From NCBI RefSeq assembly GCF_022701215.1, contig NZ_CP089976.1, forward strand, positions 990,001 through 1,022,000: DNA of 32,000 bases, in the 5' to 3' direction. Source of the stretch: Moraxella nasovis. GTDB lineage: Bacteria > Pseudomonadota > Gammaproteobacteria > Pseudomonadales > Moraxellaceae. This document shows positions 4,306-16,178 of the stretch, one piece after another; position 1 is the first letter of the stretch; each line of letters begins with the position of its first letter. Below the pieces are notes generated by a model, which saw only the letters and a program-made list of their open reading frames with translations, made no database searches and had not been told where the DNA came from. The translations under genes were made by a program, and so were the position numbers.

Positions 4306-6153
4306 TCAGCCGTCCATCTCTCCTAAAAATCCGCCACTTTGTCTTGCCCAAAGCCCTGCATAAATACCGCCACGAGCGATAAGTTCATCATGACTGCCCA
4401 TCTCCACAATCTCCCCTTTATCCATGACAACCAGCTTATCTAGGCTTGCAATCGTGGAGAGACGATGGGCGATGGCGATGACGGTTTTGCCGGTCATCAT
4501 GTCGTCTAGGCTTTGAGTGATGGCGTGTTCTACTTCACTATCTAGGGCGGATGTGGCTTCATCAAGCAGTAAAATCGGTGCGTTTTTGAGCATGACACGA
4601 GCGATGGCGATACGCTGACGCTGACCACCAGACAGCTTAACCCCCCGCTCGCCGACTTGTACATCAAGCCCTGTATTGCCATATTTGTCGTGTAGGCTTT
4701 GGATAAACTCCCACGCATGGGCTTTTTTGGCAGCCATGATAATCTCATCATCAGTCGCATCAGGTCTGCCATAGGCGATGTTTTCTCGCACGGTGCGGTG
4801 AAGTAGGGACGTGTCTTGGGTTACCATGCCGATTTGATGGCGAAGTGAGTTTTGGGTAACTTGGCTGATGTCTTGACCATCAATACAAATTCGCCCACCG
4901 TCCACATCATAAAATCTTAGCAACAGATTGACAAGGCTAGATTTACCCGCCCCACTTCGCCCCACCAGACCGACTTTCTCGCCTGCTTTGATGCTAAGAT
5001 TAAATTGATTAAATAGCCCAAGTTGATCATCACCACGCCCATAATTAAACACCATCTCATCAAAAACAATATCCCCTGCCGTCACCACCAAATCCTTGGC
5101 ACCATCTTTGTCTGTGATGGCGTGTGGCATGGTCAGTGTTCCCATACCATCTTGCACCGTACCGATATGCTCAAACAAAGTTGCCGTCTGCCACATGATC
5201 CACTGAATCATGCCTTTTAATCTAAGGGCAATACCACTTGCCACCGCAATCGCCCCCACCGTAACCTGCCCTTGTGTCCACAGATAGACACCGATGGCAG
5301 TAGAGCCGACAATCATCATCAAAGACAACAGTTCAGTGGTCGTACCTAGCAAAGACACCCACCGCATTTGGGCGTGGACAGTACTCATAAAGTCCGTCAT
5401 GGCGGATTTGGAATAATCTAGCTCACGGTGTGAATGGCTAAATAATTTGACCGCACTGATGTTGGCATAAGCGTCCGTGATACGCCCTGTCATCAAGGCT
5501 CGTGCGTCCGCCTGCATACTTGCGGTTCGTTTTAGACGTGGCAAAAAAATTTTCATAATCACGCCTGCACAAACAAGCCACGCCACAAATGGCAAGAACA
5601 GCCACACATCAAGCCCAAACAAAATCACACCGCTCGTTACAAGATAAGCGATAACAAATGACATCATCTCCGCCATCGTCATAATCGTATCACGCACGGC
5701 AAGAGCGGTTTGCATCACCTTGGCAGACACACGCCCTGAAAATTCATCTTGATAAAACTGCATGGATTGCCCAAGCATGTGCTTATGAAACCACCATCTA
5801 AGTCGCATGGGAAACACGCCTTGCAAGGTCTGAAAGTGGATCAAATTCCCCAAAAACTCGCCAATGATAGACAAGACACACAAGCCCAAAATCAGCATGA
5901 TGGTCGCCCCTTTTTCTTGCCAAAGGGTCTGTGGGCTATAAGTGGTCAGCCAATCTACCACATCACCTGCCCAAGCAAATAACAGCGAACCAAATATTCC
6001 CAAAAGCATGGATAATAGCATACGCATCAGTATCCAGCCACGAGCACCCGCCGTACACGCCCACAAAAAGGCAAATAATCCGTCTTTGGCGGTGGGCATG
6101 GGGGTGTCAGGATAAGTGTCTAGGCGGTTTTCAAAGTAGGAAAATAGGGACAT
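4306..6153 (-). CDS. ABC transporter, fused permease/ATP-binding exporter (MsbA/multidrug-like)
   Basis: 615 aa. The N-terminal half is hydrophobic with about 6 TM segments. The C-terminal NBD has Walker A GRSGAGKSS, signature LSGGQRQR, Walker B ILLLDEATSALD and the H-loop AIAHRL. Confidence 0.88.
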   Translation of the reverse strand: MSLFSYFENRLDTYPDTPMPTAKDGLFAFLWACTAGARGWILMRMLLSMLLGIFGSLLFAWAGDVVDWLTTYSPQTLWQEKGATIMLILGLCVLSIIGEFLGNLIHFQTLQGVFPMRLRWWFHKHMLGQSMQFYQDEFSGRVSAKVMQTALAVRDTIMTMAEMMSFVIAYLVTSGVILFGLDVWLFLPFVAWLVCAGVIMKIFLPRLKRTASMQADARALMTGRITDAYANISAVKLFSHSHRELDYSKSAMTDFMSTVHAQMRWVSLLGTTTELLSLMMIVGSTAIGVYLWTQGQVTVGAIAVASGIALRLKGMIQWIMWQTATLFEHIGTVQDGMGTLTMPHAITDKDGAKDLVVTAGDIVFDEMVFNYGRGDDQLGLFNQFNLSIKAGEKVGLVGRSGAGKSSLVNLLLRFYDVDGGRICIDGQDISQVTQNSLRHQIGMVTQDTSLLHRTVRENIAYGRPDATDDEIIMAAKKAHAWEFIQSLHDKYGNTGLDVQVGERGVKLSGGQRQRIAIARVMLKNAPILLLDEATSALDSEVEHAITQSLDDMMTGKTVIAIAHRLSTIASLDKLVVMDKGEIVEMGSHDELIARGGIYAGLWARQSGGFLGEMDG

Positions 6154-6423: not shown

Positions 6424-8298
<1,875 letters not shown>

Positions 8299-10461: not shown

Positions 10462-12969
10462 TCAAACATCTATTTTATCAAATTCATCTCGCCCCACCAC
10501 CGTATTATAAAGCCCCACCTTGTCTTTGTGTCTGTCTAGCCCTGTGTATTCTAGACTACTGTCTTCATAGCGTTTAAATTTATATACCGCATCATTCATC
10601 AGACTGCCATTAAAGACATTTAGGCGGTTTAGCAGAGCAAAATCTGATTGCGTAAGACCTGTTACACGGCGAAATAAATCAGGTTCAAGCTGGGTAATCA
10701 CATCTTCTAGACAATGCTCACGATAATCGGTCAGATACATAAATATGGGTATGCGTGTGGCGAATTTGATGAGTTTTTCTTGGATTTGTTTGCGAAGCGA
10801 TTTGTATTCTTTTTCTTCATCGCTAAGTTCTTTTTTCTCTTTGGGTGTCAGCTCATCGCCTTTTTCTTTTTTTGTTTTTGCCACGTTTTCAGATTTATTG
10901 ATGATTGTCTCAATGTCTTGGTTTAGACTTCTAAATCCTTCAATACCCATTAAAGCTTTCATCGCTTTATCATCATTCATCAGCCGTGTCAATGTGTCGT
11001 TATCCACATTAACAAGTAAAGCACTCTCCCACCGCCGTGCCAAAAGTGTGGCAGTCGTGCCACTCATCGCCATGTCTAGAACGCCGCCTGCATCTATCTG
11101 CTTCATCGTGCTACCATCATAGGCAAGCACAGGCAAAAAGCGGATAAACTCACCCACCTTTTGTTCAGGATTGGTGTTCGTGTTGTCCAACCGACAGCTG
11201 TATTCAGCGATTTGGCGTAAGGCTCTATTGGGAGCAAAATCAAAGACATAGCACTGCTCTTTTAAGATGGTCTCGCCATGTGGGTCGGTGGGGTCATAGT
11301 TTTTAAGCACCCAAGGGGTCTGCACCCGAAATGCCGCCTGAAAATAAGTCTCTGGGCTTGTGGTATTACGGAGCATAAAAATCCCCGTCCACGGAGCGAC
11401 CGATACGCCTGTGGTGAGCTTACCGCAGGAGAGCGTGATGGTCTTGGTGGTCAAAGGATTGCTGCCCATCGCCTGCTGTACAGGGGGCAAGGCTTCTACA
11501 CCAATACCTGCCTGCGTGCCTGCACAGACGATAATTTTATACTCATGAAAAAACTGATTTTGTTTTTGGGCCAATAAATTATTCATCGCAAAACAGCTCG
11601 CCACAGATGGCAAAAACCAAAAAGTATGCAGTAGCCCATTTTTTAGATGCACATCACTAAATGGCATGGGCGGTTTTTTTGCCCCCATTTTTAGGGTGTC
11701 TACGGTCATCTCAGGCAGTTTGTTTTGGATAAATTCTAGCCAGCGTTGCACTTCGTTCTCATGGATAAACCGTGCCGTATCGCCATCACCTGTCGCACGA
11801 AAAAACTCATTTAAATCAAATTCATTAAACTCGCCTTTCTTTGCCACATCACGAATGCTATCAGGGAGCTGATAGGTCATCATCACCATCTTGGGTAGTG
11901 ATAAATACGGATTTTTGCCGTATGTGTCGTCCCACTCGGCTTTGGCTTTTTGTTCGTCTGAATACGTCCAGTTAAAAATCTGCTCTTCAATAAATTCGCC
12001 TGACGACATCGCCCGAAATGGCGTGCCTGACAAATACAAATAGTGGTCTGTGGTAATCGGCAAAAGCTCTTGGTCAAAGTCTTTTAAAAATGAGCTTTCG
12101 GCAAATTCTTGCTCTTTTTTGTCGGTTTCGCCATCAAATAAATCACGAGCATTCTCACGCCACGCCCCATAATGATATTCATCAAAAATCACGCAGTCCC
12201 AATTTAGGGCGTGTACCCATTCATTTTTGGCTTTGATACCGCCTGATCTGGTTTTGCCCAAAAAGTCTTGAAATGACCCAAAGCAGACAATCGGGCGATT
12301 TTTATCCGCCGTGTCAATCGTCAAATCGCTGTTTTTGCTGATGAACTGCCAACCTACAAAATCCACATGGCTTTTTAGGTCATTTTCCCAAGCATCTTGC
12401 ACCGCAGGCTTGAACGTCAAAATCAGTATACGCTCCCAACCCATCGCACGGGCAAGCTGATAACTGGCAAAAGTCTTGCCAAATCGCATTTTGGCATTCC
12501 ACAAAAATCTGGGCGATTTGCCATGATTGGCAGGCTCTGCCGAAAAACTCTCAAAATACGCCTTGGTGCGTGCCACCGCCTGTGCCTGCTCAGGACGTAG
12601 CCCAAAATCTGCCGTGCGCCTGTCCGCCATCGCCTTGCCTGTCTTAACAGTCAAAAATGCCGAATGGACATCGTCTAGTGTGCAAGCGAACCACTCGCCA
12701 TTTGGTCTGTCAAAACCCATCTTAATCAGGGCTTGATGAATGGCATGGTCGCTAAATGTCGTGCCGTCATCACGAACCGCCAGCTCATCAAAGACAATCC
12801 GCCAGCTCTGGCGTGGTGTGGCAATCGGATACTGTGCCTGCACACGTTCCAAGGCGGTCTTGGTGGTGTAGCCGACCTTGATACAGCCGTCAAACCGCTC
12901 ATCGGTATAGGCATAAATGCGGGGTGGGTTTAGGGTGTCGGTGAGATTGACGGGGGTTTGTGGGTTCAT
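10462..12969 (-). CDS. T5orf172/GIY-YIG-like N-terminal domain fused to an SF2 (ResIII/DEAD-like) helicase; candidate effector of the island operon
   Basis: 835 aa. Residues ~17-100, RIYAYTDERFDGCIKVGYTTKTALERVQ...GEWF, match the T5orf172 (MUG113, GIY-YIG superfamily) pattern. The helicase has motif I AKMRFGKTF (~158-167), motif II VIFDEYH (~260-266) and motif III LSGTPFRA (~313-320). The C-terminal region has a charged coiled-coil-like stretch, KEKGDELTPKEKKELSDEEKEYKSLRKQIQEK. The ATG overlaps the upstream stop (ATGA). Confidence 0.8.
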   Translation of the reverse strand: MNPQTPVNLTDTLNPPRIYAYTDERFDGCIKVGYTTKTALERVQAQYPIATPRQSWRIVFDELAVRDDGTTFSDHAIHQALIKMGFDRPNGEWFACTLDDVHSAFLTVKTGKAMADRRTADFGLRPEQAQAVARTKAYFESFSAEPANHGKSPRFLWNAKMRFGKTFASYQLARAMGWERILILTFKPAVQDAWENDLKSHVDFVGWQFISKNSDLTIDTADKNRPIVCFGSFQDFLGKTRSGGIKAKNEWVHALNWDCVIFDEYHYGAWRENARDLFDGETDKKEQEFAESSFLKDFDQELLPITTDHYLYLSGTPFRAMSSGEFIEEQIFNWTYSDEQKAKAEWDDTYGKNPYLSLPKMVMMTYQLPDSIRDVAKKGEFNEFDLNEFFRATGDGDTARFIHENEVQRWLEFIQNKLPEMTVDTLKMGAKKPPMPFSDVHLKNGLLHTFWFLPSVASCFAMNNLLAQKQNQFFHEYKIIVCAGTQAGIGVEALPPVQQAMGSNPLTTKTITLSCGKLTTGVSVAPWTGIFMLRNTTSPETYFQAAFRVQTPWVLKNYDPTDPHGETILKEQCYVFDFAPNRALRQIAEYSCRLDNTNTNPEQKVGEFIRFLPVLAYDGSTMKQIDAGGVLDMAMSGTTATLLARRWESALLVNVDNDTLTRLMNDDKAMKALMGIEGFRSLNQDIETIINKSENVAKTKKEKGDELTPKEKKELSDEEKEYKSLRKQIQEKLIKFATRIPIFMYLTDYREHCLEDVITQLEPDLFRRVTGLTQSDFALLNRLNVFNGSLMNDAVYKFKRYEDSSLEYTGLDRHKDKVGLYNTVVGRDEFDKIDV

Positions 12970-13647
12970 TGGGTTTTTCTCGCTTTTAAGAAAAATTCAA
13001 TTTCATCATTTTGAACTTTTTGATGATAAAAATTTAAAAAATCTTGTTCAAGATATTTATGACCATCTAATAAAAAAGGAATATGATTTCCCAAATCATT
13101 TGGCGAGATAATTAAATCTAATTTATCCGTCAATTCATTTTTATCCAAAAATTCTTGAACAATTTGTGTCGTTGTGGGATTACTATATAAATCAAATTCT
13201 TGATAATTTAATCCATCAATTGACGCCAGTTCTTTTCGTTTTTCGTATTTAAAGTCTTGAATAACATCTTGACAAAATTCCTTAAAATTTTCAAAATCTG
13301 TTGGCTTTTTAATCGCTTTTGTTGATAAAATAGAAACCTGTCGGAATTTGCTTTTATCTGACAAATCTCTAATATAAAAACATTTTTTTGCTATTTCTAT
13401 TACGAATTTCTTTTGGTGGATAATCCACATAAAATTCACAATTATCCAAATCAAAATGCTGTTTTAACTCATCTCTACCGCTATAAAAACAGCTTAAAAA
13501 ATCTTTTAAATCCAAAATATCATCAGCATTAGTAACAATACCGCCCAAATTTTGCTCGGCATTATCCCTAATAGATTGAAAATGTTTAACTAGATTAGTT
13601 TGATTAAAAGATACATTGCGTGTTTTTAACGTATAATTTTTACTCAT
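12966..13647 (-). pseudogene. unknown-function gene (~226 aa if intact) split by a frameshift at an A7 tract
   Basis: The N-terminal part (ATG 13647, MSKNYTLKTRNVSF...EIRNRNSKKMFLY*) stops at 13369. The C-terminal part continues in the +1 frame to 12966 (...KKCFYIRDLSDKSKF...KARKTQ*). With A6 instead of A7 at 13383-13389 the two parts join as ...NSKKCFYIRDL.... I recognise no domain. Confidence 0.6.
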
Positions 13648-15175
13648 TTTCAAGCTCCATCGGTCTAACCATCTTTTCAATAAAAGCAATCTCATCATCA
13701 GATAAACCATATTTTTGATACAATTCATCATCTGTCCACGATTTTGAAAAGTCTTGCATAGGTACGAATTGATAAACTTTTTGAGTTCCATCTTGTGTAT
13801 TCTTTTTAAGTAGAACCAAAAAGCGGAAAAATCTTGTACTAATATAAGACATTACATTTTTGCAAATTTGTTCATTTTCAAATGTTCCAATAACTAAATA
13901 AGTTTCTGTACAAGCTGTATTTGGTTTACCCAAAAATGGTTTTCCTAATACCCAAAAATTAGATGAAATTCTTTCCCCATAAGCTCTTGCAATATAAACT
14001 TTATACTGATTAACCCAATTTCTATTCCTATCTATATCATTTAAACTTATATAATTTATACCATCGCTTGTATACAATTCAACACTGTTACTATTTGATT
14101 TTGATTGTCCACGATATGATGTAGAAAAACCGAATGGCTTTCTTGAACTAACCAAATTTGAAAAACTTTTTTCTTTAAAATTTTTAATCTTTCTTAATAT
14201 AGAAATTGCCTGATTAAAACGAATAAAAGTTTCAGTGCCATCTTCTTTTAAATATCTATTCATTCTTGAAACAATACTATTTCCTTCAATGGTTTCCACC
14301 AAGCAAGTTCCAGAGTGGCTCTTATCCCACAAAAAATAAGAAACCCCGCCTGAAATATCCACGCCTGGAAAGCAATCATTTGAATCAATATAATCAACCA
14401 AAACTTTTAGACGTCTATCATTTAGCATTTCATCACGAAATTCATCAAGCCCTTTTCCACCTGCAAACCAACGACTAGGCGTAATCATAATCAGATAATG
14501 CGGATTTAATTTTTTGGCTTGCTGGATAAATTTATGATAAATAGGCGTGGCACTTGCAGAAGCACCACCATCCGATAATTGATACGGCGGATTACCAATA
14601 ATTACATCAAATTTCATTTTACTAATTTCCAATTCATAAAAAGATGGGTGGATAAATGCATACGCATGGGTCTCAAATTCATGCTCACGGCTGATACTGC
14701 CGTTACTTTTGTCATAGACATCTTGACTTGCTCCACAGGCTGTGCATTTGCCGTTTTGCCATGTATGCTCGCTTTGGGGGAAAAAGATATTGCCATCATT
14801 ATCATCAAATGCTGTACAAATGCTGTATTCTCCCCCTGCTCGCTTGGCACAATAGACGCTCCGCCGTGATAATAGAGCGGTCAGATGTGTGATGGCGATA
14901 CCGTAGAGTTGCTGGCTAAATATATGATTGAGCCGTTCTTGTAGGTCTGGGATTTGGTGTTCTAAGCCTTTGATGAGACGTTTGGTGATTTCTCGTAGGA
15001 ATACACCTGATTTGCAGACAGGATCCAAAAATGTCGTGTTTGGATTTTCAAATAATGCCTGGGGCAGTCTGTCCAATATTTCATTGACGAGCTTTGGCGG
15101 GGTAAAAACTTCATCATTGGATAAATTGGCAAGGCATTCCAAAACGTCTGGGTTGTAATTGATTAAATCACTCAT
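13640..15175 (-). CDS. N6-adenine DNA methyltransferase, gamma-class Eco57I-like, with a large C-terminal putative target-recognition region
   Basis: 511 aa. It has N-terminal DEVFTPPKLVNEILD, motif I variant FLDPVCKSGVFL, and motif IV FDVIIGNPPYQL (NPPY at residues 195-198, nt ~14582-14593). About 310 aa follow motif IV. Confidence 0.85.
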   Translation of the reverse strand: MSDLINYNPDVLECLANLSNDEVFTPPKLVNEILDRLPQALFENPNTTFLDPVCKSGVFLREITKRLIKGLEHQIPDLQERLNHIFSQQLYGIAITHLTALLSRRSVYCAKRAGGEYSICTAFDDNDGNIFFPQSEHTWQNGKCTACGASQDVYDKSNGSISREHEFETHAYAFIHPSFYELEISKMKFDVIIGNPPYQLSDGGASASATPIYHKFIQQAKKLNPHYLIMITPSRWFAGGKGLDEFRDEMLNDRRLKVLVDYIDSNDCFPGVDISGGVSYFLWDKSHSGTCLVETIEGNSIVSRMNRYLKEDGTETFIRFNQAISILRKIKNFKEKSFSNLVSSRKPFGFSTSYRGQSKSNSNSVELYTSDGINYISLNDIDRNRNWVNQYKVYIARAYGERISSNFWVLGKPFLGKPNTACTETYLVIGTFENEQICKNVMSYISTRFFRFLVLLKKNTQDGTQKVYQFVPMQDFSKSWTDDELYQKYGLSDDEIAFIEKMVRPMELENE

Positions 15176-15861
15176 TTTTTATACTCCTTGTCGCTTAAAT
15201 CAATATCCAAAAAATACACAGGCGGGTATTCTTTTATCGGCTCAGGGATATAAGCGTCATCGCCCAAATCCGAAAATAACGGCAATTCACGCTCGCTGGA
15301 TTTATTGATTAAATCAGGATAGACATATTCACGGCGTATCATATCCGTGCCAAGCATTGACCATTCACTAAACACAATGGGCGTGCCGTCTTTCTGCTTT
15401 AATGATAAAGCATCTCCACATAAGATATTTTTTGATAATAAAAAACGTGCCACGTCTATACAGCGTGGGTTAATGTTTTTAAAATGAGATGAGTAATGAT
15501 TTTGAAAAATCGCTAATAACCGCTCACGACATTCAGCGACATTGTCAGCCAACAGCTCAATACCATAAATGGAGCTAATGGCGGTAATGGCGTTTAATTC
15601 GTAGTTGTATTGAATTTTTTTGTGTTTTTGGTAAATGGCGGTAAGTTTTCGCTGTAATATCACCGCAAGAAAATTCCCCGTACCACAGGCAGGCTCTAAA
15701 AAGGTGGCTTCGGGGTCGGTGCATTGGTGAGCGACCAAATCAAGCATGGCATTGACTTCACGCTCATTTGTATAAACTTCGCCATGGTCTTTGATACGCT
15801 CACGAGACTTGGTCTGAGATGGGGACTGGGGGTGTGTTTGAGTGGCTGATTTAACTTGCAT
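15172..15861 (-). CDS. methyltransferase-like SAM-binding protein lacking the catalytic (D/N/S)PP(Y/F/W) motif
   Basis: 229 aa. It has GEVYTNEREVNAMLDLV (like the GEVFTP helix), canonical motif I FLEPACGTGNFL, motif II/III-like YGIELLADNV, and ILCGDALS. I could find no NPPY-type tetrad in the sequence. Its stop overlaps the next ATG (ATGA). Confidence 0.7.
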   Translation of the reverse strand: MQVKSATQTHPQSPSQTKSRERIKDHGEVYTNEREVNAMLDLVAHQCTDPEATFLEPACGTGNFLAVILQRKLTAIYQKHKKIQYNYELNAITAISSIYGIELLADNVAECRERLLAIFQNHYSSHFKNINPRCIDVARFLLSKNILCGDALSLKQKDGTPIVFSEWSMLGTDMIRREYVYPDLINKSSERELPLFSDLGDDAYIPEPIKEYPPVYFLDIDLSDKEYKK

Positions 15862-15952: not shown

Positions 15953-16106
15953 AGGTACGCAGGTACGCAGGTACGCAGGTACGCAGGTACGCAGGTACGC
16001 AGGTACGCAGGTACGCAGGTACGCAGGTACGCAGGTACGCAGGTACGCAGGTACGCAGGTACGCAGGTACGCAGGTACGCAGGTACGCAGGTACGCAGGT
16101 ACGCAG
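15953..16106. repeat. perfect tandem octanucleotide repeat (AGGTACGC)x19 plus a partial unit; the minus-strand unit is GCGTACCT
   Basis: Counted directly: units start at 15953 + 8k for k = 0 to 18, with no substitutions. It lies 92 nt upstream of the first ATG of the island operon (15861). Confidence 0.97.
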
Positions 16107-16178
16107 AGCATTATAGCGGGCAAATACAGCCTGTCAAGACAATACATGACAATTTCCAATAAAAAGTGAGAAAACTTG

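Follow-up and report, generated by a model that had tools for sequence, protein, structure and literature searches.

A frameshift at an A7 run splits a rare gene of a restriction-modification cassette in Moraxella nasovis, a member of a genus apparently without MutS/MutL

A 32,000-nucleotide (nt) stretch of the Moraxella nasovis genome (NZ_CP089976.1; “the window”, whose positions are used throughout unless the genome contig or a locus extract is named) carries a restriction-modification (R-M) operon in which two open reading frames (ORFs) in different frames lie between a DNA methyltransferase gene and a helicase gene. We refer to this region, 12966-13647 on the minus strand, as the middle gene. 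An earlier note on this DNA had proposed that the region is one gene split at an A7 homopolymer, and had offered three explanations for the split: the OFF state of a switch, decay, or a sequencing artefact. The locus therefore raises the following questions: whether one gene or two are present; whether the break is real; and whether the A7 run serves to turn restriction on and off. Our results suggest that: the two ORFs are parts of one gene; decay through a recent mutation fits the data best; and the OFF switch is not supported.

A single gene read in two frames

Homologues of the middle gene were identified in other species, 16 in all, and each is a single ORF of 218-220 amino acids (aa). 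Six-frame searches yielded single ORFs of this same length in six other species of the bacterial family, and a scan of 185,579 species genomes recovered ten loci, again all single ORFs, in an Acinetobacter metagenome-assembled genome (MAG), a Cardiobacteriaceae MAG, Moraxella sp. Pampa, M. caviae, M. boevrei, M. oculi, M. oblonga, M. cuniculi, Haemophilus sp. oral taxon 851 and an H. haemolyticus MAG. When one base is skipped at the A7 run of M. nasovis, the two frames join into a continuous ORF of 226 aa, residues 7-226 of which match a 220-aa hypothetical protein of M. caviae (39% identity, E = 5e-44), while residues 1-88 align with the N-terminal part of all homologues. The alignment backs the first frame through ‘...RNRNSKK’ (‘RNNHK’ in the Moraxella sp. 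Pampa homologue) and the second frame from the invariant Cys89. As the first frame is supported up to the run and Cys89 follows directly after it, the frameshift can be placed inside the A run itself. The earlier note was thus right in reading one gene split at this run, and every one of its coordinates holds (the ATG at 13647, the end at 13369, the frame continuing to 12966, the T7 at 13383-13389, the ATGA overlap and the ORF of about 226 aa). Its alternative, that homologues would turn out to be two genuinely separate genes, is contradicted by all 16 of them.

On the minus strand, the ATG of the middle gene (13647-13645) lies within the 3' end of the gene for the 511-aa methylase (TAA 13642-13640). 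The +1 frame is open upstream only to 13454, there is no ATG in it downstream of the A7 run, and its ATG and TTG codons upstream of the run fall within the 5' ORF. The AlphaFold2 model of the fused 226-aa protein, built from an 11-sequence alignment, is one compact fold (mean predicted local distance difference test (pLDDT) score 89.8, predicted template modelling (pTM) score 0.76). In this model, beta strands at residues 70-75 and 89-94 flank the frameshift junction; since they sit on either side of it, the break would cut inside a domain, through a beta-hairpin of a single-domain fold. Taken together, alignment and model suggest that the two ORFs represent one disrupted gene and not a chance meeting of ORFs.

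Another member of the family is also split. On a Logan contig (SRR19906119, positions 172-796), it is divided into overlapping ORFs of 86 and 141 aa, with the break in the same surface loop, immediately ahead of the invariant Cys; the source is one 1-kb contig of uncertain quality. A recurrent hot spot at the Lys-Lys run was considered and rejected, as the DNA of the Logan copy has no homopolymer at its break.

With regard to the age of the lesion, the earlier note had allowed for a plain pseudogene in which A7 is accompanied by further disabling mutations. Further lesions were looked for in the middle gene and one lesion only was found, with all 19 invariant residues of the family retained. 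At near-invariant columns, the window copy is the sole deviant 6 times, versus 5 times for the equally isolated, intact M. cuniculi copy. Because there is a single lesion and no excess loss of conserved residues, the break should be either recent or an artefact, and an old fixed pseudogene was rejected. The protein, genome and metagenome collections searched yielded no other strain of the species with the middle gene: a protein search with the fused product returned only the window's own fragment and the M. caviae protein, a metagenome pattern scan allowing A6 to A9 gave 0 matches, and a profile search returned only distant full-length relatives.

The four-gene cassette and its leader repeat

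The middle gene is the third in a conserved four-gene cassette, which encodes a methyltransferase-like protein of 213-229 aa, a methyltransferase of about 511 aa, the middle protein of about 220 aa and a T5orf172-helicase of about 835 aa (Table 1). An Eco57I/MmeI-family methyltransferase, a superfamily 2 (SF2) helicase and a T5orf172 domain are encoded together, with synteny in at least 8 species. The other three cassette genes in the window align end to end with their homologues and are full length. The middle gene is always the fastest-evolving member, showing 36-43% identity to its homologues as against 62-78%, end to end, for the 835-aa helicase. A single PADLOC Type IIG profile spans both the helicase (profile positions 146-803) and the methylase (1010-1322), and for this reason the cassette resembles a long helicase-methylase restriction enzyme that has been divided into separate proteins. 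When the 511-aa methylase was compared with that of M. caviae, the C-terminal target-recognition part (13640-14420, residues ~251-450) was 34-52% identical and the N-terminal part 76-88%.

The middle gene occupies the same cassette position in Moraxella, Acinetobacter and Cardiobacteriaceae. According to ORF coordinates, its stop and the helicase start overlap or lie about 1 nt apart also in the cassettes of M. caviae, Moraxella sp. Pampa and the Acinetobacter MAG. In two Haemophilus genomes, a homologue (4962-5615 of both locus extracts) is found between hsdS and hsdR of a canonical Type I system, and in both architectures the middle gene is immediately upstream of the motor/nuclease gene. 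Given this location between hsdS and hsdR, the family appears to be tied to the motor subunit of two different R-M architectures. The family is tiny: a search of 1.84 billion proteins yielded 47 representatives at E <= 1e-3. The middle protein matched no model of Pfam, NCBIfam or PADLOC, a sequence profile search found no relative in PDB, and Foldseek searches with the model gave no significant match in PDB or BFVD (best viral match E = 0.014, TM 0.34).

Is the A7 run a device for phase variation? The operon leader already carries an array of 19 copies of an 8-nt unit, and as a perfect sigma-70 consensus ends 5 nt upstream, the array would fall at the very 5' end of the transcript. The ATG and TTG starts of a ‘leader ORF’ would then precede the transcription start, a point that matters for the way in which the repeat switches the operon. 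An array of 19 copies lets the long leader frame extend to 8 nt beyond the ATG of the first gene, while adding or removing a single copy places the end of this frame 87-92 nt upstream. Nearly all homologous operons, five in number, carry a 7- or 8-nt array of 10.8-17 copies just 5' of the first gene, with units that differ among species: 7-nt arrays in the Acinetobacter MAG (13 copies) and Moraxella sp. Pampa (17), and 8-nt arrays in M. boevrei (16), M. cuniculi (12.5) and M. caviae (10.8). A short-read assembly of the M. caviae type strain has 2.5 + 2.5 repeat copies versus 10.8 in the NCTC assembly. The hsdM gene of the Type I relatives in Haemophilus carries 4.6-7.6 copies of CGAGA, a tract known to be phase-variable (PMC7383803).

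At the site of the A7 run, none of the six homologues whose DNA was read has a run, the codons being AAA TGT, AAG TGT, GAA TGC, CCT TGT or TAT TGT. Runs of exactly seven A or T number 448 + 457 in the genome (about 905). The cut-off for phase-variable genes is a poly-A/T tract of at least 10 in PhasomeIt (PMC6321876) and a mononucleotide tract of at least 9 elsewhere (PMC7383803), and A7 falls below both. Since the homologues are tract-free, A7 is short and commonplace, and the operon family possesses a 5' repeat of its own, the case for a phase switch is weak, and the earlier note's suggestion of such a device did not find support. To judge from these sequences, the switch of the operon would be the 8-nt leader repeat, the family's dedicated hypermutable element, rather than A7.

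Table 1. Features of the locus and of the Pfam-supported homopolymer breaks elsewhere in the genome (window positions unless marked otherwise)
Feature	Position	Strand	Details
T5orf172 (GIY-YIG-like) + SF2 helicase protein	10462..12969	-	835 aa, full length; Pfam T5orf172, ResIII; presumed motor/nuclease subunit
ATGA overlap of middle-gene stop and helicase ATG (12969-12967)	12966..12969	-	putative translational coupling
Middle gene, 3' fragment, +1 frame	12966..13382	-	138 codons (residues 89-226) + stop TGA 12968-12966
A7 run (T7 on + strand) with +1 frameshift	13383..13389	-	intact reading needs A6: AAA AAA TGT = K K C
Middle gene, 5' fragment	13369..13647	-	ATG 13647-13645; 92 codons (88 native + 4 out-of-frame); stop TAG 13371-13369
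Eco57I/MmeI-family N6-adenine DNA methyltransferase	13640..15175	-	511 aa, full length; Pfam Eco57I 7.5e-37; PADLOC MTase_II; full-length alignments
Methyltransferase-like first gene	15172..15861	-	229 aa; Pfam MmeI_Mtase positions 20-122 of 259, N-terminal methyltransferase region only; relatives 213-229 aa
Leader repeat	15953..16106	-	19 perfect copies of 8-nt unit AGGTACGC (+ strand); Tandem Repeats Finder; operon leader
Sigma-70 consensus TTGACA-16-TATAAT	16110..16137	-	12/12 matches; 5 nt upstream of leader repeat; likely operon promoter
Arrays in homologous operons	54-146; 2435-2553; 2419-2547; 2642-2741; 7641-7726 (M. caviae); Haemophilus 1977-2014, 1920-1942 (locus extracts)		
cas2-3			two breaks, T7/A8 and T7; Pfam, C-terminal piece confirmed
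AAA/ABC-type ATPase			two breaks, T8 and A7; Pfam
S51 peptidase			one break, T8; Pfam
Two MFS transporters			breaks T7 and T9; Pfam
N6_N4 DNA methylase			one break, A7; Pfam
TpsB transporter gene (probable)			one break, A7; Pfam
Break positions of these genes	1834339-1834637; 1588383-1588722; 416959-416967; 1442884-1442890; 2010059-2010066; 1486114-1486120; 1325501-1325507 (genome contig)		argS excepted
argS paralogue	1581150-1581157 (genome contig)		A8 break; 81% identical to argS of three genus members

Homopolymer breaks in the genome and mismatch repair

The genome, one contig of 2.03 Mb with a completeness of 100% and a contamination of 0.03%, was scanned for all runs of at least 7 where a change of one base would fuse two frames of 60 codons or more. 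Setting aside 8 junctions with a stop at the run left 48 candidates. Pfam was used to check 25 of the 48, and about 20 remaining candidates were left out of this check, their translations looking antisense or low-complexity. Among the 25 checked junctions, a Pfam domain spans or continues across the junction at no fewer than 10 homopolymer breaks, one of them probable (Table 1). Most of the breaks are restored by removal of one base from an A/T run of 7-9.

One of the broken genes is a paralogue of argS. It was considered whether this split of an apparently essential gene betrays an error-prone assembly, and this was rejected, as a complete second ArgS of 611 aa is encoded at 1446763-1448598 of the genome contig (Arg_tRNA_synt_N, tRNA-synt_1d and DALR_1 domains; 35% identical to the broken copy). 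With this complete copy in the same genome, the broken argS is redundant; some members of the genus apparently have the second type only. Every Pfam-supported break is in a dispensable or redundant gene, none of these breaks is in an essential single-copy gene, and two genes were hit twice. Homopolymer errors should be spread at random, essential single-copy genes included, and no such spread was seen among the Pfam-supported breaks. When 12 random hits were simulated among 816 coding A/T runs of at least 7 (601 ORFs), two or more same-gene pairs occurred with P = 0.0013. Because the breaks spare essential single-copy genes and cluster within genes, the pattern argues for real decay under relaxed selection and not for random miscalls. 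No single-base homopolymer differences were found within the rRNA genes of the four rRNA operons, which is a low-power test.

What could cause so many breaks? Searches of this complete genome for MutS_V (PF00488), MutS_III (PF05192), DNA_mis_repair (PF01119), MutL_C (PF08676) and NucS (PF01939) found none of these domains. In control genomes, including E. coli, each MutS/MutL search matched 11 of 14 and the NucS search 6 of 14. In 30 further genomes of the genus, neither MutS_V nor DNA_mis_repair was found, and MutS_V was present in 54 of 56 genomes of the family's other genera. Given these results for 31 genomes of the genus on one side and the other genera of the family on the other, the genus appears to be without MutS/MutL mismatch repair. 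No description of such a loss in this genus was found in the literature searched. In repair-defective bacteria, indel rates climb exponentially with homopolymer length (PMC8510543), and the apparent absence of mismatch repair would thus account for the many A/T-run frameshifts in this genome.

Origin and consequences of the frameshift

The course of events that we propose is as follows. The middle gene would encode one protein of about 226 aa, directly upstream of the gene for the motor/nuclease subunit in ATP-dependent R-M operons. One extra A, added by replication slippage in a Lys-Lys codon pair (A6 to A7), would shift the frame, and translation from the ATG at 13647 would stop after 92 codons at 13369, which is some 400 nt short of the start of the helicase gene. 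No complete middle protein would be made, and fewer ribosomes would reach the overlapping start of the helicase-nuclease gene; since the coupling to the middle-gene stop (ATGA) would be lost, synthesis of the helicase-nuclease should fall. Such a polar effect on the helicase is plausible from the gene overlap, and neither a strong Shine-Dalgarno motif nor an internal promoter above chance was seen. Both methyltransferase genes are intact, as the earlier note had stated and as full-length alignments bear out, and a restriction-minus, modification-plus (R-minus M-plus) state would result. Such a state is the usual viable decay route of restriction systems, with a parallel in the DnmA-YeeB-YeeC relic of B. 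subtilis. Homopolymer indels that go uncorrected without MutS/MutL would pile up in dispensable genes. With mismatch repair apparently missing, the A7 run could revert by slippage, if only at a low rate, but selection for switching would not have formed it.

An ordinary frameshift by replication slippage, that is, a real and recent mutation in a genus apparently without mismatch repair, is the explanation that we consider probable. The same picture could be produced by an assembly or consensus error, with the strain truly A6, the gene intact and the extra A a homopolymer miscall: a single-base lesion in a homopolymer, in a gene otherwise perfectly preserved and with intact neighbours, is how an artefact would look, and the single contig is compatible with a long-read assembly. 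However, the Pfam-supported breaks avoid essential single-copy genes and come two per gene (P about 0.001 if random), argS, the only broken gene that looked essential, is backed by a complete second copy, the rRNA operons and the completeness and contamination values give no sign of trouble (the former with low power), and the apparent absence of MutS/MutL supplies a biological cause. We therefore regard a miscall as rather unlikely. An evolved contingency switch, with restriction off at A7 and on at A6 while methylation continues, would be served by a single, cleanly reversible lesion in a slippage-prone run inside a phase-variable R-M operon, by an R-minus M-plus state that is a safe OFF state, and by the missing mismatch repair, which raises slippage at short runs; G7 tracts can phase-vary in Neisseria (cited in PMC7383803). 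This is nevertheless improbable in view of the tract-free homologues (0 of 6), the shortness and commonness of A7, and the conserved 7-/8-nt repeat switch that is already present at the 5' end of the operon family.

That the locus is functional as it stands, either as two separate genes or through programmed recoding (+1 ribosomal frameshifting or transcriptional slippage on the A run), seems to us very improbable. A runs are sites of RNA polymerase slippage, on A7 a shift of one base downstream still allows tRNA-Lys to pair perfectly, and the Logan copy is another family member split in the same loop. However, that copy is not split at a homopolymer, neither the two-frame layout nor the slippery site is conserved (16 single-ORF homologues, with no run wherever DNA was read), the A site has no slow or stop codon (ATG follows), the modelled break cuts a beta-hairpin within one domain, and the 3' part has no ATG of its own. 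A bolder proposal, which we regard as quite unlikely, is that in this genus, apparently without MutS/MutL, the ordinary A/T runs of 7-9 nt form a second, slow tier of reversible switches, in which A7 uncouples restriction (the middle protein plus the coupled helicase-nuclease) from modification, atop the fast 8-nt repeat, the middle protein being a fold-novel accessory subunit common to Type I and T5orf172-helicase systems.

Several points weigh against a real, recent slippage mutation with the effects proposed above: A7 may be a consensus error for a true A6; a broken essential gene may have been missed, as 25 of the 48 junctions were Pfam-checked; no second strain with the gene was found in the collections searched; we infer the polar effect and the R-minus M-plus phenotype from the gene overlap alone; and the middle protein has no function assignable by comparison with Pfam, NCBIfam, PADLOC, PDB or BFVD.

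R-M genes made phase-variable by simple sequence repeats, the phasevarions, include Haemophilus influenzae hsdM with CGAGA repeats and Type III mod genes (PMC7383803, PMC5909438). Our case resembles them in that a host-adapted airway bacterium has a slipped-strand frameshift in a repeat tract of one of its R-M operons, repeats of this type are found at the 5' end of the operon family, and the Haemophilus relatives of the middle gene sit in exactly the CGAGA-repeat hsdM system. Unlike in phasevarions, however, the A7 tract is short and unconserved, and the gene that contains it is an accessory one, not mod, hsdM or hsdS. Another relative is the DnmA(YeeA)-YeeB-YeeC cluster of Bacillus subtilis and Vibrio crassostreae, the Bacillus version of which survives as a methylase with inactive restriction partners (PMC9973331). 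It shares with the present cassette an MmeI/Eco57I-family N6-adenine methyltransferase without a nuclease of its own, together with an SF2 helicase and a T5orf172/GIY-YIG domain, a likeness of domain content; here, however, helicase and T5orf172 are fused in one 835-aa protein, and there are two extra genes (those for the 229-aa methyltransferase-like protein and the 226-aa middle protein) as well as a hypermutable leader repeat.

Restriction-linked ORFs are also found in Type I loci, such as prrC between hsdS and hsdR in the E. coli prr locus, and the rlo genes of Campylobacter. As in the Haemophilus homologues, an extra non-canonical gene there lies between the specificity/methylase genes and the motor/nuclease gene; unlike PrrC, the middle protein matches no ATPase or anticodon-nuclease domain, in keeping with its lack of database matches described above. 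Helicobacter and Campylobacter, which are not known to have MutS/MutL, carry homopolymer frameshift pseudogenes, and their variable tracts are mostly poly-G/C of at least 8. Uncorrected slippage at mononucleotide runs would likewise have produced many frameshifted accessory genes in M. nasovis, whereas the breaks here are at A/T runs of 7-9.

In annotation, both ORFs should be entered as one disrupted gene, and the strain is predicted to be methylation-proficient and probably restriction-impaired for this system. Taken alone, the frameshift is unremarkable: another null allele that slippage has produced in a restriction operon. As mismatch repair has apparently been lost in the genus, homopolymer breaks in Moraxella assemblies deserve scrutiny before they are put down to sequencing error. 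Of more value than the frameshift itself are this apparent loss and the gene family that the break led to: a rare family with a confidently predicted fold and no known structural match, which is always found beside the motor subunit of two ATP-dependent R-M architectures.

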